Shown here piece after piece: positions 1-27,436 of a DNA stretch of 35,274 nucleotides. The stretch comes from a virus (lineage: Duplodnaviria; Heunggongvirae; Uroviricota; Caudoviricetes): IMG/VR virus record IMGVR_UViG_2897352509_000012; one strand, given 5' to 3'. Within the stretch, counting starts at the first letter, position 1. Each line of letters begins with the position of its first letter. The position numbers and the translations under genes are program-made. The notes under the pieces were generated by a model that was not told where the DNA came from, ran no database searches, and saw nothing but the letters and a program-made list of their open reading frames with translations.

Positions 1-1362
1 ATGTTTAAACCGGAACTCCTTTCCCCGGCGGGAACGCTGAAAAATATGCGTTACGCTTTCGCTTATGGCGCAGATGCTGTTTATGCGGGCCAGCCGCGTT
101 ACTCCCTGCGTGTGCGCAACAACGAATTCAACCACGAAAATCTTCAGCTCGGCATCAATGAAGCCCACGCGCTGGGGAAAAAGTTTTATGTCGTGGTCAA
201 CATTGCCCCGCACAACGCCAAGCTGAAAACCTTTATCCGTGACCTGAAACCGGTGGTGGAAATGGGGCCGGATGCGCTGATTATGTCCGATCCGGGGCTG
301 ATTATGCTGGTGCGCGAGCACTTCCCTAAAATGCCGATCCACCTCTCGGTGCAGGCTAACGCCGTAAACTGGGCGACGGTGAAATTCTGGCAGCAAATGG
401 GCCTGACCCGCGTGATCCTCTCTCGCGAGCTGTCGCTGGAAGAGATTGAAGAGATCCGCCATCAGGTGCCGGATATGGAGATCGAGATCTTCGTTCACGG
501 CGCACTGTGCATGGCCTACTCCGGTCGCTGCCTGCTCTCTGGCTATATCAACAAGCGCGATCCGAACCAGGGTACCTGCACCAACGCCTGCCGCTGGGAG
601 TACAACGTCCAGGAAGGGAAAGAAGATGACGTTGGCAACATCGTACACAAGTACGAGCCGATTCCGGTGCAAAATGTTGAGCCGACGCTAGGTATCGGCG
701 CGCCAACCGACAAAGTGTTTATGATCGAAGAAGCCCAGCGTCCGGGCGAGTATATGACCGCGTTTGAAGATGAGCACGGCACTTACATCATGAACTCGAA
801 AGATCTGCGCGCCATCGCCCATGTAGAACGCCTGACCAAAATGGGCGTGCATTCGCTGAAAATCGAAGGCCGTACTAAATCTTTCTACTATTGCGCACGC
901 ACCGCACAGGTTTATCGTAAAGCTATCGATGATGCCGCTGCGGGCAAACCGTTCGATACCAGCCTGCTGGAAACTCTGGAAGGTCTGGCGCATCGTGGCT
1001 ATACCGAAGGTTTCCTGCGTCGTCATACTCACGACGATTATCAGAACTACGAATACGGTTATTCGGTTTCTGACCGCCAGCAGTTTGTTGGTGAGTTTAC
1101 CGGTGAGCGCAAGGGGGACCTCGCGGCGGTAGCGGTGAAAAATAAATTCTCCGTTGGCGACAGCCTTGAGCTGATGACGCCGCAAGGCAACATTAACTTT
1201 ACCCTTGAGCAGATGGAAAACGCCAAAGGCGAAGCTATGCCGGTAGCACCAGGCGATGGTTATACTGTGTGGCTCCCGGTGCCGCAGGATCTTGAGCTAA
1301 ATTACGCTCTGCTGATGCGTAATTTCTCCGGGGAAACCACGCGTAACCCCCACGGTAAGTGA
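1..1362 (+). CDS. yegQ: U32-family peptidase YegQ (TrhP), full length 453 aa
   Basis: Uninterrupted 453-aa ORF starting MFKPELLSPAGTLKNMRYAF, recognised as E. coli YegQ; host gene at left edge of window. Confidence 0.9.
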   Translation: MFKPELLSPAGTLKNMRYAFAYGADAVYAGQPRYSLRVRNNEFNHENLQLGINEAHALGKKFYVVVNIAPHNAKLKTFIRDLKPVVEMGPDALIMSDPGLIMLVREHFPKMPIHLSVQANAVNWATVKFWQQMGLTRVILSRELSLEEIEEIRHQVPDMEIEIFVHGALCMAYSGRCLLSGYINKRDPNQGTCTNACRWEYNVQEGKEDDVGNIVHKYEPIPVQNVEPTLGIGAPTDKVFMIEEAQRPGEYMTAFEDEHGTYIMNSKDLRAIAHVERLTKMGVHSLKIEGRTKSFYYCARTAQVYRKAIDDAAAGKPFDTSLLETLEGLAHRGYTEGFLRRHTHDDYQNYEYGYSVSDRQQFVGEFTGERKGDLAAVAVKNKFSVGDSLELMTPQGNINFTLEQMENAKGEAMPVAPGDGYTVWLPVPQDLELNYALLMRNFSGETTRNPHGK

Positions 1363-1532: not shown

Positions 1533-1596
1533 GATATCTAATTGCATGAAATAAAAGGATTTATTTCTGGTCACGTCCACACATTGACCACATCGA
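1507..1596. repeat. Left attachment junction; imperfect direct repeat of the right junction
   Basis: Shares AAT, T6 run, TGCAT, CTGGTCAC and TTGACCACATCGA blocks (1567..1596) with 33457..33530. Confidence 0.5.
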
Positions 1597-3592: not shown

Positions 3593-6040
3593 TTAACCGT
3601 CATGCATCATGCTGGCACGGGCGCGCGCACGTTTATCCCGCTCGTATTTTTCGAGCGCATCCTGTAACTGGCGGTCAAGCTGTGTCCCCGGCGCAGTACC
3701 ACCCGTCAGGCTGATGTGATATTCGTTTTTACTCTGGTCCACATAAGAGCGGCCAGCCGGTGCCGTGACCGGCTGATAAGCCTGATAGCCTGCATAAGAG
3801 CTGGTCGCCGGAATATAACCACCGCTGCCATACGTGGCGGCTTGAGTTCTGGCGGCGGTCTGGTCAAGTGTGTCTGACTCTTTGTTGATGACCCCGAGTT
3901 TTTCCAGTACCCAGTCAATACCGCTGCGCAGTTTGTTGAACGCATTAAGCGGCAGCATCAGCGCGTCAGCCAGTGCCTGCCCGAACATGACCCCCGTGTC
4001 ACGGCAACGGTTCAGGGTGTCCTGAGTGGCTTTGACCGGGGCAATCAGGTTTTTAAACCACTGCCACGCGGCCTGTAACTTTTCACCCAGCCAGTCAAAC
4101 ACCGGCTTAAGTGGCGTGAACAGTTCCCCCACCGGCGCAAATGCCACTTTCAGCCCTTCAACCACACCGCCAAAGAATGCGCTGACAGGTTCCCAGTATT
4201 TACGGATAAGCAACGCCCCGGCGACAATTGCGGCCACCACGGCCACAACCGGCCAGCTAATCGCCCCGATGGCGGTCATAACAGCACTGCCAACCGTCGT
4301 GAAGACTGCCCCCATTGCGCCTGCTGCCGCGATGATGGCATTGATGCCGGTGATAACCGGCCAGGCTACAAGACCAATTGCACCGATGATGCCAGTCAGC
4401 GCCAGCGCGCCACCGGCAATGATGCCGATGGTTGACGCCAGTGATTTATTTTTCTGGATCCAGCCGTCGAGTTTTAACACATACTTTGTGGCCGTCTGCG
4501 TGAGCTTACGCAGTGCGCCTTCCTGCTGGTCAAACAGGTCAGTCCCCACCGCCTCATAAGCGGACTGAAACTCCTTAAAGTCACCGCCGAGGTTGTCCTG
4601 CATGATATTTACCAGCTCTGCGGTCTTTCCGTCTGAGGCTTTAAACGCAGCGGTCAGTTTGTCCAGCTTTCCGGTTGAGGCGGCAGTCATCAGCACAGCG
4701 GCGGCTGAGCTGGCCTCCTCCCCGAAAATGGTTTTCATGTATTCAGCCTGCTGGGCAGTACCGAGCCGGTTTTTCTCAAAACTGGCCTGCATTTCTTTCA
4801 GAATGGTAAATACTGGCCGGGTGTTTCCCTTGCTGTCTGAGGTTTTCACACCAAGCTCTTTGAGTGCATCCCATGCTTTTCCCGTCGGTGCCTGCAGGCG
4901 GCTTAACACGGCACGGCTTCCCGTCCCCGCCATTGAACCGGTAATTTTTGCATCATGCAGTGCCCCGACCATTGCGGCGGTTTCTTCAATGCTGACACCG
5001 GCATTTTTTGCCACAGGTGCGGCATAGGTCAGCGCATCGCTCATACCGTCAAAATCGGCGGCGGTTTTGTTCATCGTCATGGAGAGAACATCCCCGATAT
5101 GAGCGACCTTATCGTTTGAAAGCTGAAAGGCGGATTTCATCCCCATCAGCAGGGCGGCGTTTTCTTCCATCGTGCGACGGTTCGCCAGCGCCATATTCAG
5201 CGTGACCGGCGTTGCCGCCTGAATGGCATCAACATCCCCACCCGCTTTCGCAATGATAATCTGTGCACCGGCTGCATCATCTGCCGAGGCTGCGGTATTG
5301 TCGCCGAGCTGGCGCGCCTGTTTGCGTAATGCGGCCATTTCGGCGGAGTCTTTTGCCACTCCGAGCACAGCCTGTAATTCTGAGTTTTTCTGCGCAAATT
5401 CATAACCGGGCATCAGCAGCTTAACTCCGGCCATCGTTCCCGCCGCCGCAATCCCCACACCGGCAGCGCCTACTGAGGCCATATTTCCGGCCAGTTCCTT
5501 TCCGGCCTGATAACGCTGTTTTACTGCGTTAAGTTTTGCCTGTTGTGCACTGACACGCGCCAGTGCGTCACGCTGACGGTTAAGCTGTGCGGTGGTTTCA
5601 CTGATACGGTTTTTCAGTCCCTGCTCATCATGTGCAAGATTGCGGGTATTAATTCCCACAGAGGCCAGTTCCCGCTGCTGGCGTTTAACCGAATCCGTCA
5701 GGCGGTTATATTTCACCTGTAAGTCCTCCGCCGCACGCTTTGCGGATTCCAGCACTTTCGCCTGAGCACGGGTCGGACGTTCGGTATTTTTAAACTGTGT
5801 GGCAAGGGCTTCGGCCTCCTGCCGTGCCTTTTCAAGTGCATGACCAGTCACTGCGAGCTGTGCGCTGGTCTTGCGAAATCCCTCAATACGGGATGCGTGA
5901 CCGTTCAGCTCGCGCAGTGATTTTTGTGTTTCCCGGATATCCCCCGACAGCGACTTGCTCGCTGTACGGATGGATTTAAACGGGCGGGATGCCTGGTCAA
6001 CAGCCCTGAGCAATACCTGTAATTTTACATTGTTACTCAT
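3593..6040 (-). CDS. T: Tail tape measure protein T, 815 aa
   Basis: 815-aa ORF with coiled-coil N-terminus and Gly/Ala-rich hydrophobic repeats typical of tape measure; P2 gpT length. Confidence 0.9.
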   Translation of the reverse strand: MSNNVKLQVLLRAVDQASRPFKSIRTASKSLSGDIRETQKSLRELNGHASRIEGFRKTSAQLAVTGHALEKARQEAEALATQFKNTERPTRAQAKVLESAKRAAEDLQVKYNRLTDSVKRQQRELASVGINTRNLAHDEQGLKNRISETTAQLNRQRDALARVSAQQAKLNAVKQRYQAGKELAGNMASVGAAGVGIAAAGTMAGVKLLMPGYEFAQKNSELQAVLGVAKDSAEMAALRKQARQLGDNTAASADDAAGAQIIIAKAGGDVDAIQAATPVTLNMALANRRTMEENAALLMGMKSAFQLSNDKVAHIGDVLSMTMNKTAADFDGMSDALTYAAPVAKNAGVSIEETAAMVGALHDAKITGSMAGTGSRAVLSRLQAPTGKAWDALKELGVKTSDSKGNTRPVFTILKEMQASFEKNRLGTAQQAEYMKTIFGEEASSAAAVLMTAASTGKLDKLTAAFKASDGKTAELVNIMQDNLGGDFKEFQSAYEAVGTDLFDQQEGALRKLTQTATKYVLKLDGWIQKNKSLASTIGIIAGGALALTGIIGAIGLVAWPVITGINAIIAAAGAMGAVFTTVGSAVMTAIGAISWPVVAVVAAIVAGALLIRKYWEPVSAFFGGVVEGLKVAFAPVGELFTPLKPVFDWLGEKLQAAWQWFKNLIAPVKATQDTLNRCRDTGVMFGQALADALMLPLNAFNKLRSGIDWVLEKLGVINKESDTLDQTAARTQAATYGSGGYIPATSSYAGYQAYQPVTAPAGRSYVDQSKNEYHISLTGGTAPGTQLDRQLQDALEKYERDKRARARASMMHDG

Positions 6041-7047: not shown

Positions 7048-8238
7048 TTAATTGCTGTTAACCGAGGTGACCAGATTTGCCAGGTATTTATCGGTAATAC
7101 GCTGGCGCAGGGTCAGGTTTTCAAGAGGAGGCACCGGTGTATAGTCGTAGTCGATATACAGTTTTCCGGCCTTGAGGGTTTCCGCATCGTTGGATTCTTC
7201 GCTGAACCAGCAGGTCGCATCCACGATATAGCCGTTTGTTTTCAGCTCACGGAATTTGGCATTGATGCCGTCAACGATGTCGCGAATCAGCGTTGCGGTG
7301 ATGGGCTTGTCCACCGCCCACATGTGCGCCTCAGCCATCGTGTCGGCCAGCACCTGCGCGGTGCGGGTGTAGTTTTCAAAGAGGAACAGCGGGTCATCAG
7401 AGCAGGTACGGTTACCCCAGAAGCGGAAACCGTCGCGGCGAATCAGCGTAGTGACGCCTGACTCGTTAAGCAGGTCAGCATCGGTGCCGGACTCCTGCAA
7501 ATCCCAGAATACAGATGCGCTGATGCCGGTAACACCGTTCACCCCGACATTGGACAGCGTTTTATGCCAGCCCTGCTCCTGGTCGATTTTGGCACGCAGC
7601 CCCAGTGCACGGGCGGTGGCATACGCGGTGGCGGTGGTACTGGTGACCGTATCCCATGCGAGGAAATCCGGCCAGATGACCATCAGCTCACGCTGGCTGA
7701 AATTCTGGCGGTAGGCTTTCACCTCGGAAATAGTCTTACAGCCCCACGCGCTGATATATCCGAAAGCGCGCAGCTTCTGACAGACGGATGCCAGTGCAAC
7801 AGCCACCTCTTTGGTATCCAGTCCCGGCACACCGAGAATACGCGGTTTAACACCGGTTACCGACTCCGCCGCCAGCAGGGCTTTCAGTCCGGTGTACTGA
7901 CCGTTTTCGTCGGTGGTGCCAATGATATTGGAAACGGTCTGCGCAAGTTTCGTTTCCTCGTCTTCGCCGGTGCCGTCTTCCACACGCACGACAACGGTGA
8001 CCGGTTTTGACTGGTCAGCGATGGCCTGCAACGATGCTGCCAGCGTGCCTTTTTTACCGGCCTTTGCAATTGCGCTCTGCACATTGGTAATCAGCACCGG
8101 TTTATTGAGGGGGAAGGTTTCCGCATCCGCATCGCTGGCCGTGCAGACCATGCCGACAATGGCAGTGGATACGGTGGAAATGACGCGGGTGCCGTCGTTA
8201 ATCTCCAGCACCTGCACGCCGTGATGATAGTCACTCAT
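7048..8238 (-). CDS. FI: Contractile tail sheath protein FI, 396 aa
   Basis: Length/synteny match to P2 gpFI. Confidence 0.9.
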   Translation of the reverse strand: MSDYHHGVQVLEINDGTRVISTVSTAIVGMVCTASDADAETFPLNKPVLITNVQSAIAKAGKKGTLAASLQAIADQSKPVTVVVRVEDGTGEDEETKLAQTVSNIIGTTDENGQYTGLKALLAAESVTGVKPRILGVPGLDTKEVAVALASVCQKLRAFGYISAWGCKTISEVKAYRQNFSQRELMVIWPDFLAWDTVTSTTATAYATARALGLRAKIDQEQGWHKTLSNVGVNGVTGISASVFWDLQESGTDADLLNESGVTTLIRRDGFRFWGNRTCSDDPLFLFENYTRTAQVLADTMAEAHMWAVDKPITATLIRDIVDGINAKFRELKTNGYIVDATCWFSEESNDAETLKAGKLYIDYDYTPVPPLENLTLRQRITDKYLANLVTSVNSN

Positions 8239-8297
8239 CCGTTTAACTCCGTGGTTAATGGGTGAGTGATATTTTCAGTTGTGCCGGAGATGTCAGG

Positions 8298-8891
8298 CTA
8301 TTTGTCCCGGTTGGCTAAGGGCTGACACAATTTATTTTTTGTCACTGAGGCGGGGAATTTTTTATAGAGCGTGGACAGGCCAATATCAAAAATCAGTGCC
8401 ACGCGTTGACGTGATTCCCCTGCAGCCAGCAACCGCCCGGCCTGCTCCCACTCACTCGCGGTGAGTTTCGGACGTCTGCCACCAATACGACCTTTGGCTC
8501 TGGCCGCCTCCAGTCCGGCGCGTGTCCGCTCGACAATGAGTTCTCGTTCCATTTCAGCCAGGGCACCCATCACATGAAAGAAAAAACGCCCCATCGGCGT
8601 GCTGGTATCAATAGCATCCGTCAGGCTGCGAAAATTAATGCCGCGTTCGCGCAGTTCCTCAACCAGAATGACCAGATGCCGCATACTACGCCCCAGCCTG
8701 TCCAGCTTCCAGACTACCAGAGTGTCACCTGCTGATAATGTTCTGAGCAGTTTTTTTAGTCCCGGTCGGTCGGACTTCGTGCCGCTGATTTTATCCTCAA
8801 AAATCAGCTCACATCCTGCGCACTCCAGCGCGTTACGCTGCAATTCCGTGTTCTGGTCATTTGTTGATACACGAACATAACCTATACGCAT
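8298..8891 (-). CDS. Serine recombinase, Hin/Gin/Pin/Cin-family DNA invertase
   Basis: MRIGYVRVSTNDQNTELQ with catalytic Ser in YVRVSTxxQ, resolvase fold and C-terminal HTH; start taken at MRIGY. Confidence 0.85.
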   Translation of the reverse strand: MRIGYVRVSTNDQNTELQRNALECAGCELIFEDKISGTKSDRPGLKKLLRTLSAGDTLVVWKLDRLGRSMRHLVILVEELRERGINFRSLTDAIDTSTPMGRFFFHVMGALAEMERELIVERTRAGLEAARAKGRIGGRRPKLTASEWEQAGRLLAAGESRQRVALIFDIGLSTLYKKFPASVTKNKLCQPLANRDK

Positions 8892-8915
8892 AAAAATCCC
8901 TATAAAAACAGAATA

Positions 8916-9452
8916 ATGACACATCTTTCAACATCATATTTAACCGATTTCATAAACGTTGGTTTGGGAGAAGGCTCTGCATTACCTGTTGGTGTGCCTG
9001 TTCCATGGCCTTCAGCCACACCGCCAACAGGCTGGCTGAAATGCAACGGTGCGGCATTTTCTGCTGAAGAATACCCGGAACTGGCAAAGGCTTATCCAAC
9101 AAATAAATTACCTGATTTACGCGGTGAGTTTATTCGTGGCTGGGATGACGGGCGCGGTATTGATGCAGGACGTGTTTTATTGAGTATTCAGGCCGGAATG
9201 CTGGAAAAGCATAACCACTATTGGGGAATCTGGACTTCACGAACTAACGACCAGACTCTGGAAAGTTTTACAGGCACCACGATTTTAAAACAAATCACGC
9301 CCCTGTCTCCGGCCATTAACTTCGATAATTACCCAATTCCCAACCCGGCTATTACAGAGGGTGGTGTTGTTGCGGCAACGACTAAACCTGCAGGTGCGAA
9401 TGAAACACGCCCACGAAATGTCGCTTTTAACTATATTGTGAGGGCTGCATAA
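8916..9452 (+). CDS. Alternative tail-fibre C-terminal variable segment, silent in this orientation
   Basis: ORF crosses the crossover site at ...NVGLGEG...; sequence after the site is the alternative C-terminus; the ATG at 8916 is probably not a real start. Confidence 0.55.
   Translation: MTHLSTSYLTDFINVGLGEGSALPVGVPVPWPSATPPTGWLKCNGAAFSAEEYPELAKAYPTNKLPDLRGEFIRGWDDGRGIDAGRVLLSIQAGMLEKHNHYWGIWTSRTNDQTLESFTGTTILKQITPLSPAINFDNYPIPNPAITEGGVVAATTKPAGANETRPRNVAFNYIVRAA
8948..8973. repeat. Inversion crossover site (left), hix/gix-like
   Basis: TTCATAAACGTT-GGTTTGGGAGAAGG; inverted partner at 10849..10876; shared TGGTTTGGGAGAAG half-site with AA/TT centre. Confidence 0.6.
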
Positions 9453-10054
9453 TGAATAACGCAGAATTAAACAGTGAATTAATTGCCACTATGGCAGGAG
9501 AAATTACTGTTTATAACTTTGATGTTGAAACACTGGAATATATTTCCACGTCAACTGAATATCTTGCAGTGGGTGTCGGTATTCCAGCATATTCCTGTTT
9601 AGACGCTCCTGGTACATCTAAGGCTGGTTATACAATTTGCCGTTCTGTGGATTTAAAATCATGGGAATATGTGTCAGACCATCGCGGTGAAATCGTCTAT
9701 AACACCGAAACGGGAGATGCCAAAGAAATCACAGCACTAGGCGACTATCCCGAAAATACAACCACTATCGCCCCTTTATCTCCATACGATAAATGGGATG
9801 GTGAGAAATGGGTGACCGATACTGAGGCACAGCATAGCGCCGCAGTCGAAGCGGCAGAAGCACAACGCCAGTCACTGATTGATGCTGCAATGGCTTCCAT
9901 TAGTCTGATTCAGCTGAAATTACAAGCCGGACGGAAACTGACGCAGGCAGAAACAACCCGACTTAACGCTGTGCTGGATTACATTGACGCGGTGACGGCA
10001 ACAGATACCAGCACCGCGCCGGATGTCATCTGGCCTGAACTGCCGGAGGCGTAG
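9452..10054 (+). CDS. Tail fibre assembly chaperone (alternative set)
   Basis: 200-aa ORF directly after the alternative fibre segment; C-terminus (...LDYIDAVTATDTSTAPDVIWPELP) resembles that of the adjacent assembly protein (...LDYLDALELVDTSSAPDIEWPTPP). Confidence 0.7.
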   Translation: MNNAELNSELIATMAGEITVYNFDVETLEYISTSTEYLAVGVGIPAYSCLDAPGTSKAGYTICRSVDLKSWEYVSDHRGEIVYNTETGDAKEITALGDYPENTTTIAPLSPYDKWDGEKWVTDTEAQHSAAVEAAEAQRQSLIDAAMASISLIQLKLQAGRKLTQAETTRLNAVLDYIDAVTATDTSTAPDVIWPELPEA

Positions 10055-10478
10055 GCCATTCAATATCTGGCGCACTGGAGGTATCAACCAGTTCCAGTGC
10101 GTCCAGATAATCCAGCCACAAATTATATTGCGCCAGTTCCTCACCTTTCAGACGACCAATAGCGGCTTTACCGGGCCATTGCTTACTGTTCATGTATTCG
10201 TTGGCCTGGTTAATTAGTAGCTGTCTTTCTGATTCAGTAATTTCAATAAGTTCTTCATGCGTGGGTGGAGGAATCTCTGCCCACGCAGGCAGCCCATCAT
10301 CTCCGGCAATACGGATTTTTCCTTGTGGCGGTTCAGCCATAAACTCACTGATAATATTTTGATTTACTTCCTTAGCGTCTGATAAATCCCATCCCTCTGA
10401 TTTATATTTATCAATCATATCCACAGGGAAAAAAGCATTATGCCTTGCGCTATAAACATATTCGTTCATATAAATCAC
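10026..10478 (-). CDS. G: Tail fibre assembly chaperone (G-like, active set)
   Basis: 150-aa ORF directly downstream of H on the same strand; 3' end overlaps convergent assembly gene. Confidence 0.75.
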   Translation of the reverse strand: MIYMNEYVYSARHNAFFPVDMIDKYKSEGWDLSDAKEVNQNIISEFMAEPPQGKIRIAGDDGLPAWAEIPPPTHEELIEITESERQLLINQANEYMNSKQWPGKAAIGRLKGEELAQYNLWLDYLDALELVDTSSAPDIEWPTPPAVQAR

Positions 10479-10489
10479 CCTGAATAAAA

Positions 10490-11689
10490 TTACTCACCAA
10501 CAGCCCACCAACTGTAATTCATCGATACCGTGTCGCTGGTTGATGACGTTCTGTAAGCAGAATTAAAGCCGGTTAACGTTGGGCCTTCTGCAGTCATCAC
10601 GAACCCTCGCCCAGCGCCTAAAGGCGCACCGCCATCACCAGAATGAGTAAGCATGGCGCAGTCCGCTTTTTTGGGGAAAGGGATGCTGAATGTAATTCTC
10701 ATTGTTTGCGTCGATAATGTCGGCGTAACCGCACCACGACCATATTGCAGGATTTTCCCGTTGGGTAATTTCATCCATCCATCACCACTGGCAAAAGAGG
10801 CCATGTCCGGTATCTGATTTTCCCCTGTCCCCACATCCCGTTTTGCCGCTTCTCCCAAACCAAGGTATGCGAGAAGACCAGCAACATCCTTTCCACTCAA
10901 ATTAGTAAGCGTATTGTCCAGCGGTTGTTTGCCTGCCAGCGCATTGTTAATGGTGGTGCTGAATTTCGGGTCATTGTTAATGGCTGCGGCAATTTCTTTC
11001 AGTGTGTCCAGCGTGGCTGGCGCACCGTTAATCAGAGCGGTAATAGCGGCCTGAACAAACTCAGTGGTCGCAATCCGCGAGGTGTTATTTCCTGCGGCAG
11101 GCGTCGGCGCTTTTGGTTCTCCGGTAAATGTCGGATTATGTTTCTGCGCATACTGGGTATGAGGATCCTGTGCGGCAATGTGGTTTCTCATCTGGTCATC
11201 CACATACAGCCTTAATTCCAGGACTTCATCATCCACGTATTTACGGGTCGCCAGTACCACCGACGGGTCGATTTTCAGCGTGATGGCTTCGGTATTCGTG
11301 ACAACCAGAATCATGCGGATAGTCTGGGTGCGTCCGCTGCCTTCCTGCAACTGCGGTTTGTACGTTTCCGGGCAGTTTGCCACCGCAATGAGTACACCTT
11401 CATCATCATAAAGACCAATCTCACGGATCCAGAACCCTCCCTCGTTTTCAGGGATGATTTGCTCCGCAATAATCTGGCTCTGATTGTTCGGGTCAACACT
11501 CAGAAGATTCAGCGGTGCAATGCGTTTCTGGTTAATCAGTATTGTCTGTGCCGGGTCTGGTGTCGGCAAGACACCATTCGCATCACCAACGGCCATTTGC
11601 GTCAGATTCAGCTTACTGCCGAGCATCGTCGCGTTAGCCAGCCGTGCTGCGCCCTGATTAGTCAGAATGGCGTAGTATTTCACTGTCAT
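10490..11689 (-). CDS. H: Tail fibre protein H; constant N-terminus (about 10863..11689) fused to variable C-terminus (10490..10862)
   Basis: N-terminus MTVKYYAILTNQGAARLANA recognised as P2 gpH-like; crossover site inside ORF at ...AYLGLGEAA... Confidence 0.85.
   Translation of the reverse strand: MTVKYYAILTNQGAARLANATMLGSKLNLTQMAVGDANGVLPTPDPAQTILINQKRIAPLNLLSVDPNNQSQIIAEQIIPENEGGFWIREIGLYDDEGVLIAVANCPETYKPQLQEGSGRTQTIRMILVVTNTEAITLKIDPSVVLATRKYVDDEVLELRLYVDDQMRNHIAAQDPHTQYAQKHNPTFTGEPKAPTPAAGNNTSRIATTEFVQAAITALINGAPATLDTLKEIAAAINNDPKFSTTINNALAGKQPLDNTLTNLSGKDVAGLLAYLGLGEAAKRDVGTGENQIPDMASFASGDGWMKLPNGKILQYGRGAVTPTLSTQTMRITFSIPFPKKADCAMLTHSGDGGAPLGAGRGFVMTAEGPTLTGFNSAYRTSSTSDTVSMNYSWWAVGE
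10849..10876. repeat. Inversion crossover site (right), hix/gix-like, inside H
   Basis: CTTCTCCCAAACC-AA-GGTATGCGAGAAG, inverted relative to 8948..8973. Confidence 0.6.
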
Positions 11690-17107: not shown

Positions 17108-17616
17108 CAGATTTGACTCACGATGCAGCGCGGCTTGTCCTGGATGCGCGCCACTGCCCAGCGCATATCCCGCCACAGTTCATCAATGGTGCTGTCAATG
17201 CTGTCGGCCTTCTTGTCGCCTTTCGCACTGGCATCCACGCCGCGATAACGCTCATAAAGCGATGCGGTCGCCATCGCACACACGGCGCGCTCGTAGTAAA
17301 AAACTTTGATGCTTTCACCGTCGATGTCGTCCGCCGGGACGTCAGCCAGACGCGTAAAACCGGCGGCAATTTTCTGTTCGCGGTACTCGTACAGCTCCGC
17401 ATTCGTTTCAGCCATGCCTGACTTGATGGCCTCACGCAGACGGGCGGGGGCGACGGTCTGCTCAAGGCGCATACGTTCCCGGACGCGCTTCGGGTCGATA
17501 TCGGGAAAAAAGAACGTGTTTTTAATCACCGGCTCGTCGCCTGCCGGTTGCGGGATGACCACCGTACCCTCACCGGACACGGGAGCCTCCTTTCGCGGAA
17601 TAATCAGCGTCATCAT
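17107..17616 (-). CDS. L: Head completion protein L, 169 aa
   Basis: MMTLIIPRKEAPVSGEG...; start at internal Met; synteny M-L-X. Confidence 0.85.
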   Translation of the reverse strand: MMTLIIPRKEAPVSGEGTVVIPQPAGDEPVIKNTFFFPDIDPKRVRERMRLEQTVAPARLREAIKSGMAETNAELYEYREQKIAAGFTRLADVPADDIDGESIKVFYYERAVCAMATASLYERYRGVDASAKGDKKADSIDSTIDELWRDMRWAVARIQDKPRCIVSQI

Positions 17617-17715
17617 GACTACCTCTGAAAAGTCGGGCGGTGGACGCCGGTGCAGTGTCAGGTGATTCACCCTCACTGACCGGCGTGCCGCCCTGGCGCG
17701 GGGCGCATTCGGTTG

Positions 17716-23746: not shown

Positions 23747-25717
23747 TTAAAGGTCATCAATTAAACCTAAAGGCAAACCGTCCTCACCAACCGAGCTATA
23801 ATGAGCGATAATATTCGAAAGTTCACCAGTAGAAAACGAATTAGGCAAATCATTATCAACTAATATAATCTGGCACGGAACATTTTTTCTTTCTGCTTTT
23901 TGAACTGTATTCAATAGTTGTTCATAAATATTTTGATACTTCATCGGATCTGACATTCCCTCAAGGTCATCCTCGAATGCAAGAGTTTCTTTTGAATATT
24001 TTTCCTTGGTCTGTTTCCCTAAATATTTGCCAACCGTATCAAATATCAAAAGTAAAGGATGGTTAACATTATGATCTATTGCATAATCAAGAATAGACAA
24101 AAGATACCCAATAGAAGAAATAGTTCTCAAACCTCCGGATGTTATTTTAAAATATTCTTTTTCTCTTATAACAGGAATGTAATAGCTTTCAGAGATTTTT
24201 ATCCCCGTTCTGTTTTTGATATTAATACTCTTCAAATACTGACTAAATCTATCACCCAAACCTTGTAAAATGCCCTCCATGCTAGGTGCGTTTTTCTTTA
24301 ACGCCTCCAAGCGTTCAGTTAATGCTTCAATATCTTTTCTCAGTACCTGATACTTTTCAAGCAGTTCCTCTTGCTGGTTTCTAACCTTCAAATCTTTTAC
24401 TAACTGCTCCCTAACCTTCTCATTTTTTGAGATCTCTTTAATATAAAAATCTCTCTGAGTCAAGAATGGTGTAATCATTGACTGGCTTTCTTCGTCAATC
24501 AATTCTCTCAACTCGTCAAGTCGTTCATCTAATTCCTTTTTATAACCTGATTCTTTTTTTAATTTAAATGACATTTCTGAGATCATGTCATTAATATTTC
24601 GTCTACGTCGACTAAGTGAATTCAACTCTTCATTAAGATCTTTTTCTGATGAAATTTCAAATGGAAAATCAGAATCATCTATTTTAATGTGGCTATCACA
24701 GACTGGACAGGAAAATACTTCCTTATCCAATACACCAATGCGAGAATTTGCTGTTTTAATCGCTTTGAGTTTTTCAATATCATTATCATAGTCATTTTTT
24801 AACCGCGAATATTTATCAATCTTATCCTCAAGCGCAGTAATATTTAATATGCACTCTTTGTATTTAAGCGAAATAAAATTGTGAGCATCTTTCAATTCTG
24901 TATACTGTATGGAATCCGCTTTCATATTTTTATCGAGAGCAGACAAACCTGCAACAAGTTCTTCTAAAACAAGATCTATCCTATTAATCTCATCATCAAT
25001 TGATTCAATCGTTTCATAGTCTGTATCGCGAAGAAATTCAGATATTATCTGATACTTCCTATTTAATTCCGTTACTAAACTACTTTTTGCAGATATTTCA
25101 CCTTGGAGTCTGGCGATGCTTTCATCCAACACATTGAACATGTATTTAAAAACTTCTTTCGTAAATGCGTAGCGGGACCAATCACCCAATCGCAAGAAAG
25201 ATTTACTACCAATATCATCCTGACTTACATAAACAAATTTATATATATTTCTAAAACTTAACCTGCGCATCTGTGAATGAGCTTTAGAAGGAGACACCTT
25301 AATTTCAATCTTTGGAAAATTAAGACTATCAAGTAAAAACTCCGAAAAAACACCATCAACATTTGATAATGGGCTATAATTAGGAGCGTATTTTTTCGGA
25401 AAATGTTTATGTAAATCATCAAACTTACAACGATAAACTTCTATTGCTTTTTTATGATCATAGATATCTCTTACGATTGTGAATACAGTATCATTGATCA
25501 CTACTTCAAGAGCAGCATAGTTTACTGATGTTTTTATTTCATCTGCTAAATCTATAGAGCTAGCACCTAAAAGATAATTAATAAACTCCAGAATGCTTGA
25601 CTTACCTGTGTCAGAGTCTCCGTAGATAACATTGAGACCTTTATAAAAAGTAGTGACGTAGTTTTTACGAACGCCAACAAGAATCAAACTATTGATATTG
25701 AGATATGATTTCATCAT
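23747..25717 (-). CDS. SMC/Rad50-like ABC ATPase with coiled coil and CxxC zinc hook (cargo gene 3)
   Basis: Walker A GDSDTGKS (res 33-40), heptad-rich middle with CPVC (res 337-340), signature TSGGL (526-530), Walker B LLLIFD (555-560). Confidence 0.75.
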   Translation of the reverse strand: MMKSYLNINSLILVGVRKNYVTTFYKGLNVIYGDSDTGKSSILEFINYLLGASSIDLADEIKTSVNYAALEVVINDTVFTIVRDIYDHKKAIEVYRCKFDDLHKHFPKKYAPNYSPLSNVDGVFSEFLLDSLNFPKIEIKVSPSKAHSQMRRLSFRNIYKFVYVSQDDIGSKSFLRLGDWSRYAFTKEVFKYMFNVLDESIARLQGEISAKSSLVTELNRKYQIISEFLRDTDYETIESIDDEINRIDLVLEELVAGLSALDKNMKADSIQYTELKDAHNFISLKYKECILNITALEDKIDKYSRLKNDYDNDIEKLKAIKTANSRIGVLDKEVFSCPVCDSHIKIDDSDFPFEISSEKDLNEELNSLSRRRRNINDMISEMSFKLKKESGYKKELDERLDELRELIDEESQSMITPFLTQRDFYIKEISKNEKVREQLVKDLKVRNQQEELLEKYQVLRKDIEALTERLEALKKNAPSMEGILQGLGDRFSQYLKSINIKNRTGIKISESYYIPVIREKEYFKITSGGLRTISSIGYLLSILDYAIDHNVNHPLLLIFDTVGKYLGKQTKEKYSKETLAFEDDLEGMSDPMKYQNIYEQLLNTVQKAERKNVPCQIILVDNDLPNSFSTGELSNIIAHYSSVGEDGLPLGLIDDL

Positions 25718-26226
25718 TTCTCCTTGAAGACTTGATTTATAACAGAGTTTAACTTAGAGGTAGGCAATGCTTGTAGCGGTAACAATGCTTCGGATAGTCG
25801 TTTTATTTCTTTAAAATATCCATCAGTCAATGAGCTAGCAAATTCCTTACCTTTTTCAGATAAAAATAATTTAACACTCTCATTATTTTTTTTCTCAGCT
25901 GAGAGCAATCCCCGCAATGACATAATTTTTATAAGATATTTCACTTTGGAATTGTCGAATAAGATATCTACATTTGTTGAAAAACTCTTTATTGTATAAG
26001 TTAACTGGGACTCGACACAAGCAGGCTTTTTCCCCGAAACTGTAAGAGCATAATCAATTTTTGATGGGTTTTTTATCAGATACATAAAAATTTGTATTTT
26101 ATTAATATCTAATGATAACACTCCTTTTTTGCTATGAGATAATATAGATATAGCAATGGCAAGCATAGCAAAATTCAAGCTATACTCTTCATCAAGAGGA
26201 ATATACGGCAAGTTATTTTTCTTCAT
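25714..26226 (-). CDS. Small protein of unknown function, 170 aa (cargo gene 2)
   Basis: ORF overlaps both neighbours (14 nt and ATGA overlap), same AT-rich composition; no recognisable motifs. Confidence 0.6.
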   Translation of the reverse strand: MKKNNLPYIPLDEEYSLNFAMLAIAISILSHSKKGVLSLDINKIQIFMYLIKNPSKIDYALTVSGKKPACVESQLTYTIKSFSTNVDILFDNSKVKYLIKIMSLRGLLSAEKKNNESVKLFLSEKGKEFASSLTDGYFKEIKRLSEALLPLQALPTSKLNSVINQVFKEK

Positions 26227-27436
26227 GATTACCTCGCCGTAATTGCTCCAAAGTTTCTACGCTGGTTTCAGATGACCAGACAATATCCCTGTCATTTTTG
26301 TTAGCCAGTTGATGCAACATTCCTTTCTTATGTATCGTTTCTAAACTTTTTATAAGAGAATCTAACGACGACTTATCCTCTTGGGCTATTCGTCTATGAA
26401 CAGCAGCAATAAATTTATCTGGGGAAATTGAATTCGCGATATATTGCTCATACTCTTCCTGGTAAATCTCCCTTATTTTAGAATACAAATGACCAAGTAG
26501 TTTCCTATCGTAATCACTCGTAAAAATATTTCTCGCAAGCTCAGCATTATAATAATATTCCTTTGCATGCATAGCGATATCCTGATGTATATCTGCGACA
26601 ATCATTTTTAAGACGAAATACTCATTATCATATTGTTTCTCATCAGAAAAACGCTCAACACATATCTTCTTGGGTGCTTCTAAATTTATCTGCTGAATAA
26701 ATTGCTTTACCGCAACAAACACTGTAGACGAGCTGTTTTCGGGCTTGCAAATTGAGCTATGCCCTTCATTAACTGCAATTGAGTTATTTCGTTCACTATC
26801 CATCGGTAATGCGCTTTTTTTATCAACTATAGTGTCATGAGAACCATAAACATATCTAGTGATAGGAAGTTTTTTGCTACAATTTATCCAGCGCCTATTC
26901 AACGTATCGGTCGCTTCACTTAACAATCCAAGATCTACTAACTGAGCATTTGAAGATACCATTGAAGTTATATTCGCCAATTTAGCACCAAAGTGAGGGA
27001 CTGCTAACGAAATGAATCCAATTATATTAGATTGTTCCTCATGCTCAACTTTTTTTAGAATTAGATTTTTTGATATTACCCCCCCCATACTATGGGCGAT
27101 TATTATAATTCGAGAGTAATCACTTAGCGTTACCCTAATCTCAGTATACAATAACTCAGCTATTTCATCAGTTGGTAAATTTCTCTCTAACTTATTTTTC
27201 TTAGAGAAAATACGAGCCCATAATCCTGACGTTTTAGCATACGTTTGTGTAAATTTGGTGAAATAATTGAAACATGCAATATCAAATACATTGCCAATGT
27301 CTTCATCTTCTGCTAATAGTTTTGGAAATGAAGTTTCTTTATTAAAGTTCCATGTTTCCAAACCACCATTTAATCCATGTACAAATAGTATCAGGCTATC
27401 TTTTTTCTCGTGGCTTATCCATTCAACCATGCTCAT
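26213..27436 (-). CDS. Lipase-like alpha/beta hydrolase fused to C-terminal helical domain, 407 aa (cargo gene 1)
   Basis: HG oxyanion motif (LILFVHGLNGG), AHSMG nucleophile pentapeptide (Ser116), downstream GSHDT (Asp201) and EGHSS (His226); C-terminal about 160 aa helical, Tyr/Glu-rich. Confidence 0.75.
   Translation of the reverse strand: MSMVEWISHEKKDSLILFVHGLNGGLETWNFNKETSFPKLLAEDEDIGNVFDIACFNYFTKFTQTYAKTSGLWARIFSKKNKLERNLPTDEIAELLYTEIRVTLSDYSRIIIIAHSMGGVISKNLILKKVEHEEQSNIIGFISLAVPHFGAKLANITSMVSSNAQLVDLGLLSEATDTLNRRWINCSKKLPITRYVYGSHDTIVDKKSALPMDSERNNSIAVNEGHSSICKPENSSSTVFVAVKQFIQQINLEAPKKICVERFSDEKQYDNEYFVLKMIVADIHQDIAMHAKEYYYNAELARNIFTSDYDRKLLGHLYSKIREIYQEEYEQYIANSISPDKFIAAVHRRIAQEDKSSLDSLIKSLETIHKKGMLHQLANKNDRDIVWSSETSVETLEQLRRGNHEEK

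Follow-up and report, generated by a model that had tools for sequence, protein, structure and literature searches.

The question raised by this locus is whether a prophage can exchange the tips of its tail fibres by inverting a part of its own tail-fibre operon. The window, i.e. the whole stretch of 35,274 nt that was analysed, carries a serine invertase gene beside a 1.9-kb segment that ends within tail-fibre gene H, and we consider it very likely (probability of about 0.9) that these constitute a Pin-type site-specific inversion switch of the Hin/Gin/Cin/Pin family, situated in the operon for the tail fibre. The element is a P2-like prophage, inserted into the E. coli chromosome between yegQ and yegS: its genes stand in the P2 order (V-W-J-I-H and FI-FII-E-T-U-D), which places it among the P2-like phages, and pro483 (Peduovirus) covers 89% of window positions 1-25000 at 96.2% identity. 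The initial annotation had proposed that the module replaces the G-terminator-fun(Z) region of P2, and our comparison with P2 confirmed this. Beside the module, window positions 8318 down to 8200 are 98% identical to positions 17572..17690 of the P2 record, which annotates there the activator-binding site, the transcription start and FI. The coordinates of all features are collected in Table 1.

Table 1. Features of the inversion module and its borders, in window coordinates.
Feature	Position	Strand	Remarks
P2-type late promoter region pF of the FI operon	8239..8335	-	overlaps the last ~11 invertase codons; edge of the inserted module
Serine DNA invertase, Pin/Gin/Hin family	8298..8891	-	197 aa; Pfam Resolvase 4.4e-52 and HTH_7 5.1e-13
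Putative recombinational enhancer	8800..8875	-	within the 5' part of the invertase gene; two candidate Fis-type sites
Leader/promoter region of the invertase	8892..8946	-	55 nt, from proximal site to ATG
Invertase-proximal crossover site	8947..8972	-	26 bp; TTCTCCCAAACCAACGTTTATGAAAT = TTCTCCCAAACC-AA-CGTTTATGAAAT
Alternative H C-terminus, predicted silent	8973..9452	+	159 aa + stop; Pfam Collar (Phage Tail Collar) 1.1e-15
Chaperone of the silent arm	9452..10054	+	200 aa; Pfam Caudo_TAP 1.2e-32
Chaperone of the arm predicted to be expressed	10026..10478	-	150 aa; Pfam Caudo_TAP 1.8e-31
Variable C-terminus of H in the present orientation	10490..10849	-	residues 281-399; Pfam Gp53-like_C 1.6e-11
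Tail-fibre gene H	10490..11689	-	399 aa, intact
Distal crossover site, inside H	10850..10875	+	26 bp; TTCTCCCAAACCAAGGTATGCGAGAA = TTCTCCCAAACC-AA-GGTATGCGAGAA; minus strand encodes ...LGLGE
Constant N-terminal part of H	10876..11689	-	outside the invertible segment; Pfam Phage_tail_fib N-terminal domain 8e-62

The two crossover sites have the form known for the family, being imperfectly palindromic, 26 bp long, mutually inverted and provided with the same central dinucleotide. They have an exact 14-mer in common, composed of a 12-bp half-site and the AA centre, and of the outer halves, the one in the proximal site agrees with the half-site at 7 of 12 positions and the one in the distal site (TTCTCGCATACC) at 10 of 12; a repeat finder reported 18-nt arms with 94% complementarity here. 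The sequence TTCTCCCAAACCAA occurs exactly twice in the 35 kb, also at a tolerance of 2 mismatches, at which shuffled sequences gave a mean of 0.28 matches. This inverted pair is not a chance repeat, because it matches the sites of the cryptic prophage e14 of E. coli K-12 at 25 of 26 (pinE-proximal site against our proximal site) and 21 of 26 positions. The distal site is identical to that of O157:H7 prophages with documented inversion. The half-site, the AA centre and the position of the right site at the GLGE codons of H had all been given correctly in the initial annotation; its site boundaries (8948..8973 and 10849..10876) belonged to real sites but were off by 1-2 bases. A multi-site arrangement, shufflon-like or with three repeats as in EPEC, was also considered and ruled out, since there is no third crossover site: a 14-mer scan with up to 2 mismatches gave 2 matches in the window, and the only addition that a relaxed 12-mer scan for the half-site made in this region was the distal site's outer half. 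The system thus has two sites and two variants.

What lies between the sites is a pair of convergent arms, each with a C-terminus for H and its own assembly chaperone, and the chaperone genes overlap tail to tail by 29 nt. As had been claimed, H is intact in the present orientation, judging from its reading frame and domains, and both chaperones belong to Caudo_TAP. The constant part of H has 42% identity to residues 27-256 of P2 H. On the arm now joined to it, the chaperone has 54% identity to e14 TfaP over 112 aa; on the other arm, the C-terminus and the chaperone have 61% and 87% amino acid identity to e14 StfE and TfaE, respectively, and the C-terminus is ~91% identical at the nucleotide level to stf-tfa of HK97. 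The two C-terminal arms have no significant similarity to each other (6 of 23 residues identical), and the chaperones are 37% identical over 81 aligned residues. When the segment was inverted in silico, the 399-aa H became an in-frame 439-aa H', both products being open to the stop codon; residues 281-439 of H' are the Collar-domain C-terminus, which is followed by the 200-aa Tfa. The predicted swap of C-terminus and chaperone therefore holds in frame, with the crossover site inside the fibre reading frame. The alternative C-terminus had been started at 8974, but this position is out of frame, and a translation of 8974..9452 runs into stop codons; the correct frame begins at 8973 (GSALPVG...).

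Raw reads or PCR across each junction had been proposed as a check of the two orientations, and a comparative equivalent is available in near-identical prophages that exist in both forms with breakpoints exactly at the sites. The related O157:H7 strains EC4115 and TW14359 are identical here over 6461 bp except for an inner 1875 bp that is an exact reverse complement, and the inversion breakpoints fall in the common site core. Among complete E. coli genomes, 78 match the present orientation and 89 the inverted one, each with 100% coverage in one piece at ~94% identity. In IMG/VR, both junctions are spanned in 5 loci for the present form and in 4 for the inverted form, and the layout of a proximal site with an inverted distal site was found in most of 79 loci. 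From prophages that are only ~94% identical to the window, we infer that the segment of this prophage likewise inverts at its sites. The 439-aa form of H is annotated as intact in TW14359. In EC4115 the annotation breaks the intact H into a fragment and a pseudogene.

The enzyme required for such a reaction is present. The invertase has the N-terminal catalytic domain with Ser9 and the Arg/Asp residues, followed by the C-terminal helix-turn-helix, that define the family; Y5, R7, S9, D33, R42, D64, R65, R68, E115, R116 and E117 are all present. It matches the solved structure of Mu Gin (3uj3) at 6e-94 over residues 1-182, and its amino acid identity is 88% to e14 PinE and 80% to Mu Gin. The reading frame could also begin further upstream, with the ATG at 8924, but we set the start at 8891 because the alignment with Gin and Pin begins at MRIGYVRVST. 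H106 and M114, the positions of the known Fis-independent changes, are wild-type, so that the enzyme lacks such changes. The enhancers of Hin, Gin and Cin sit in the 5' coding region of the invertase gene, with Fis sites spaced 48 bp apart. Since a scan of the 5' regions of this invertase gene, pinE and gin gave no Fis-consensus pair 48 bp apart that was consistent across the three, we used conservation at synonymous sites instead. Among 33 dereplicated relatives, codons 1-15 and 21-30 show a synonymous-codon identity of 0.71-0.77, compared with 0.59 overall, and the third positions of codons 8-12 rank 3rd among 176 windows of the same size; this raised conservation is suggestive of an enhancer. 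Two loose Fis-like 15-mers of the form G-N13-C, at nt 22-36 (8856..8870) and nt 71-85 (8807..8821) of the gene, have their centres 49 bp apart, close to the known spacing, and are candidates for its Fis sites.

If the switch works as its family does, invertase dimers would bind both crossover sites, and the enhancer near the 5' end of the invertase gene, with Fis bound to it, would assemble a synaptic complex on supercoiled DNA. Double-strand cleavage by Ser9 at the central dinucleotide would be followed by a 180-degree rotation of one dimer pair and rejoining of the ends. Late transcription of the V-W-J-I-H operon would reach the segment through the constant part of H and would thus express only the arm proximal to it, and a lysogen population would therefore release two kinds of virion, one having the 399-aa H with a Gp53-like tip and the other the 439-aa H' with a Collar-domain tip. 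The two tips probably bind different receptors, as is suggested by their unrelated sequences and different Pfam domains, and by analogy with known systems the switch may be expected to affect host range.

The leader sequence and the first invertase codons differ from those of pro483, O157 and e14; the spacing from site to ATG (55 nt) is close to the 54 nt of e14 and equal to that of IMG/VR relatives. A scan for a consensus promoter ahead of the invertase gave no match. The invertase is therefore only presumed to be expressed, and the diverged leader and the missing promoter match, together with the single orientation displayed by the one assembled window, are what might be expected if an active switch had lost invertase expression or site use and become fixed as a relic. 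We regard this as very unlikely, because long disuse should have left traces elsewhere. Inactivating mutations in the invertase, which would speak for such decay, were absent in a comparison with 53 distinct relatives: every invariant column is kept and no residue within 1-180 is unseen among the relatives, and the gene is intact with both of its domains. The exact 14-bp core is kept in both sites, which match active ones, and both arms and both chaperones are intact reading frames. Moreover, a silent invertase gene need not freeze the segment, since a further invertase of the Pin family, if present in the cell, could supply the activity in trans, as PinQ does for e14; qPCR has shown that both PinE and PinQ invert e14, and that they use the same core, TTGGTTTGGGAGAAGG (PMC12529663).

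A different function has also to be weighed, because the arm on the invertase side may be translated in the lysogen. The open reading frame 8916..9452 has its ATG 19 codons before the crossover site, and equivalent frames are annotated in pro483, EC4115 and TW14359. Its product would be a free receptor-binding fragment that keeps other phages from adsorbing and that inversion would switch on or off, so that the segment would serve host defence besides, or instead of, host range. A precedent is StfE2, which arises from the homologous inversion of e14 and is reported to block T2 adsorption (PMC12529663), and the resemblance of this arm and its chaperone to StfE and TfaE points in the same direction. 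However, a direct reading of the bases before 8916 gave no Shine-Dalgarno sequence, no promoter match was found upstream of it, and its leader peptide shows no conservation, reading MTHLSTSYLTDF in this prophage and MPFACYFFIF in e14; for a complete P2-type phage, in addition, the classical role in the tail fibre is sufficient. We therefore give hardly any credence to a defensive function. If it were true, the arm beside the invertase would not be silent, its product would be assisted by its chaperone, and the switch would also toggle superinfection exclusion in a fully functional P2-like prophage.

For the tail-fibre switch that we prefer, the closest known system, as judged from genes and sites, is the P segment of e14 with Pin rather than Mu G or P1 C. 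Apart from the similarity of the invertase and the crossover sites, e14 has the same GLGE codons at the site and the same layout, namely a constant N-terminus, convergent arms of C-terminus plus Tfa overlapping by 29 nt, and an invertase gene just outside; one of its arms is homologous to the silent arm here. The differences are that the lambdoid element e14 is defective and its fibre gene truncated, whereas the present element is a complete P2-type myovirus prophage, that StfP is unrelated to the Gp53-like arm, and that the invertase here extends at its C-terminus 13 aa beyond PinE, into the P2 pF promoter. The statement that the segment mirrors Mu G and P1 C, checked against Mu, was borne out for layout (the constant part of S, the S/U and S'/U' arms, and gin downstream on the same strand) and for the invertase, and the expected mechanism and the layout are those of P1 C as well. 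The likeness to Mu is confined to layout and invertase because the arms have no significant similarity to Mu S, S', U or U'; the Mu gix sites differ as well (TTCCTGTAAACCGAGGTTTTGGATAA), and the G segment is ~3 kb long against 1.9 kb here.

The module itself is already known: it is common, it is annotated in GenBank, and its inversion in P2-like prophages has been published. Escherichia phage pro483 and the yegQ-integrated P2-like prophage of O157:H7 (EC4115, TW14359 and SS52) carry the same module gene for gene, with 93.8-94.4% nucleotide identity and 100% coverage; the differences of ~6% of nucleotides and in the diverged leader are only allelic, and the annotated products in pro483, EC4115 and TW14359 include a DNA invertase, tail fibre proteins and assembly proteins. 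The chromosomal locus between yegQ and yegS is shared with the O157:H7 prophage, and insertion at yegQ has been reported for spinach-outbreak strains (PMC4928038). By their descriptions, the prophages of EPEC E2348/69 and Salmonella Fels-2 (fin) are also alike in having a P2-like backbone with an invertase beside the tail-fibre genes. Coexisting orientations of an EPEC P2-like prophage were shown by sequencing and PCR (PMC4272514), and inversion in Fels-2 fin by strain comparison (PMC7953296); one EPEC locus differs from the present one in its three repeats and four variants.

The switch adds nothing new to the Hin/Gin/Cin/Pin paradigm, but it is a clean textbook example that can be used as a positive control. 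It explains the 1.9-kb inversion differences found in this prophage between near-clonal E. coli assemblies, as well as the splitting or mislabelling of H by annotation pipelines, as in EC4115, and anyone who works with P2-like phages or tailocins of this kind should reckon with populations of mixed tail fibres. As to the ends of the prophage, the window contains no tRNA gene and therefore none lies at these ends; the best candidate for the attachment core is a putative 15-bp direct repeat, CATTGACCACATCGA, at 1582 and 33526.

The window is a P2-like (Peduovirus) prophage extending from ~1510 to ~33500 between host flanks (table), and its tail genes lie on the minus strand in the order V-W-J-I-H, as in P2. 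An ORF with a Tail Collar domain faces H, the tail-fibre gene, and its chaperone gene, and the genes for the two chaperones overlap tail to tail by 29 nt. In P2 the corresponding interval is occupied by G, a terminator and fun(Z), so the initial annotation was correct in stating that the module replaces Z/fun-G. A 15-bp direct repeat, CATTGACCACATCGA, found close to both prophage ends, is a candidate att core. The prophage sits between yegQ and yegS, and insertion at yegQ has been reported for a P2-like prophage of O157:H7 spinach-outbreak strains (PMC4928038).

Coordinates of features in the prophage and its flanks
Feature	Position	Strand	Remarks
yegQ, U32 peptidase	1..1362		host flank
15-bp direct repeat	1582..1596
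FI sheath gene	7048..8238		follows invertase gene
Serine recombinase (invertase), 197 aa	8298..8891	-	Resolvase and HTH_7 domains
Proximal 26-bp site	8947..8972	-	TTCTCCCAAACCAACGTTTATGAAAT
ORF facing H	8916..9452	+	Phage Tail Collar domain
Chaperone, 200 aa	9452..10054	+	Caudo_TAP
Chaperone, 150 aa	10026..10478	-	Caudo_TAP; next after H
H, 399 aa	10490..11689	-	Phage_tail_fib N-terminal, Gp53-like C-terminal domain
Distal 26-bp site	10850..10875	+	TTCTCCCAAACCAAGGTATGCGAGAA
LmuB	23747..25717	-	PADLOC 1.5e-235
LmuC	25714..26226	-	PADLOC 1.5e-52
LmuA	26213..27436	-	PADLOC 3.5e-108
Integrase	32374..33387
15-bp direct repeat	33526..33540
yegS	34375..35274		host flank; region 99.5% identical to E. 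coli

The two 26-bp crossover sites are mutually inverted and have a 12-bp half-site and an AA centre in common. This shared 14-mer occurs at these two places only in 35 kb when up to 2 mismatches are allowed (shuffled sequences gave a mean of 0.28 matches), and because a relaxed half-site scan added a single match in the region, the outer half of the distal site, we regard the module as a two-site system. Both sites had been recognised in the initial annotation, although their positions were wrong by one or two bases; its placement of a site inside H at GLGE holds, the half-site reading GGT TTG GGA GAA on the minus strand. When the interval 8961..10861 was flipped in silico, H residues 1-280 (ending in ...AYLGLGE) were fused in frame with GSALPVGVPVPW..., giving a 439-aa product, H', with the 200-aa chaperone directly after it. 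The proposed swap of the H C-terminus and its chaperone is thus borne out; the silent C-terminus had been started at 8974, which is out of frame, the frame starting at 8973.

The two arms have unrelated C-termini (identity at 6 of 23 aligned positions), and their chaperones share 37% identity over an alignment of 81 residues. The silent arm, consisting of the alternative C-terminus and the 200-aa chaperone, has at 8951..10106 ~91% DNA identity to stf-tfa of the lambdoid phage HK97, and similar stretches are present also in Klebsiella phages. Fibre modules are known to pass between phage families; the HK97-like silent arm fits such exchange and is a clear case of it.

Comparison with relatives showed that orthologous modules invert naturally. 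Of 5426 complete E. coli genomes, 78 have a match to the present form, i.e. the orientation in the window, and 89 to the in-silico inverted form, each as a single piece with 100% query coverage and ~94% identity. EC4115 has the present form and TW14359 the inverted form; both are O157:H7 strains of the 2006 spinach outbreak. The two do not differ over 6461 bp save for the inner 1875 bp, which match exactly as reverse complements (0 mismatches), and the breakpoints fall within the shared CTTCTCCCAAACCAA core; we judge misassembly from so short a repeat to be unlikely. RefSeq splits H of EC4115 (3751..4950 of that locus) into a 'gp53-like domain-containing protein' and a pseudogene fragment; the sequence itself translates as an intact 399-aa H, and the split looks like an annotation artefact tied to segment orientation. 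In IMG/VR, 79 loci encode invertase relatives, and in most of those with sufficient upstream sequence the proximal site lies 55 nt from the ATG and is paired with an inverted distal site, mostly at a distance of 1.7-2.5 kb. Both junctions are spanned in the present form by 5 loci and in the inverted form by 4, and many loci carry other arm combinations. In three loci (L011, L036, L039) the two detected sites are direct, not inverted, and in three others (L028, L050, L082) the full 26-bp sites are identical at both ends; these odd loci may be multi-site systems in which one site escaped detection, arrangements prone to deletion, or the outcome of past exchanges.

Residues 1-182 of the invertase match the solved structure of Mu Gin (6e-94), and over its first 180 residues the protein shares 88% identity with e14 PinE and 80% with Gin. 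It retains Ser9 as well as the conserved Arg, Asp and Glu residues, H106 and M114 are wild-type, and against 53 distinct relatives 111/111 invariant columns are retained with 0 residues lacking precedent. Its C-terminus exceeds that of Pin by 13 aa. Since P2 backbone homology (98%) restarts at 8318, a position in the pF late-promoter region, the invertase gene ends in ~11 codons of P2 promoter DNA, which mark the edge of the inserted module. The DNA encoding the end ...CQPLANRDK* (8298..8335) has its homologue in the late promoter pF of P2 and the activator-binding region there, and the 3' end of the invertase gene therefore overlaps the promoter of the FI operon.

Members of the Hin/Gin family depend on an enhancer that lies in the 5' part of the invertase gene and is bound by Fis, at sites spaced 48 bp apart. 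Loose Fis-like 15-mers are present at nt 22-36 and 71-85 of the gene, with centres 49 bp apart, and among 33 dereplicated relatives synonymous-codon identity is 0.71-0.77 in codons 1-15 and 21-30, versus 0.59 overall; third positions of codons 8-12 rank 3/176 among same-size windows, and those of codons 24-29 only 19/175. Together these are suggestive of a putative Fis enhancer. The parts list, the in-frame exchange and the natural inversion of orthologues are shown; the other steps would be those of the Hin/Gin paradigm, in which the synaptic complex would be put together by Fis and the enhancer, Ser9 would cut at the AA centre, and the subunits would rotate and the ends rejoin. Through late transcription of the V operon, expression would be limited to whichever arm is attached to the constant part of H, yielding two virion types differing in adsorption specificity.

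It is very improbable that the switch is frozen in the window copy, a reading favoured by the 55-nt leader upstream of the invertase ATG (8892..8946). This leader and invertase codons 1-8 are markedly unlike those of pro483, O157 and e14, whose leaders are alike, all with TGGCATCAT and the ribosome-binding site AGGGGGA/AGGGAGA; the window has instead TGTCATTAT and TAGGGAT, a weaker site, and these 55 nt gave no hit to a consensus promoter. The diverged leader may be a recombination patch that could affect expression. By analogy with e14 StfE2, the parked silent arm might have a role in defence, although this is improbable: no Shine-Dalgarno sequence was seen ahead of its ATG (8916), and the leader peptide encoded from there is without conservation.

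Among known systems the closest is the P segment of e14 rather than Mu or P1: e14 sites are identical to the window sites at 25/26 and 21/26 positions, and StfE and TfaE are homologous to the silent arm (61% and 87%), whereas Mu has the layout and invertase in common with the window but not the sites and arms. PinE and PinQ invert e14 at the same TTGGTTTGGGAGAAGG core, as determined by qPCR (PMC12529663). That tail-fibre segments invert in P2-like prophages has already been published: coexisting orientations were confirmed by PCR in EPEC E2348/69, which has one two-variant and one three-repeat locus (PMC4272514), and Fels-2 with fin is a second P2-like case (PMC7953296). The layout in phage pro483 is the same, at 93.8% identity, and its invertase and fibre genes are annotated; the module is likewise already deposited and annotated in many O157:H7 genomes. 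The initial finding is correct and well read, but ordinary and already known.

A complete Lamassu anti-phage system (PADLOC) is encoded at 23747..27436 on the minus strand, flanked by the presumed portal gene Q and replication gene A, both assigned from P2 gene order; this location is the old/tin cargo position of P2.
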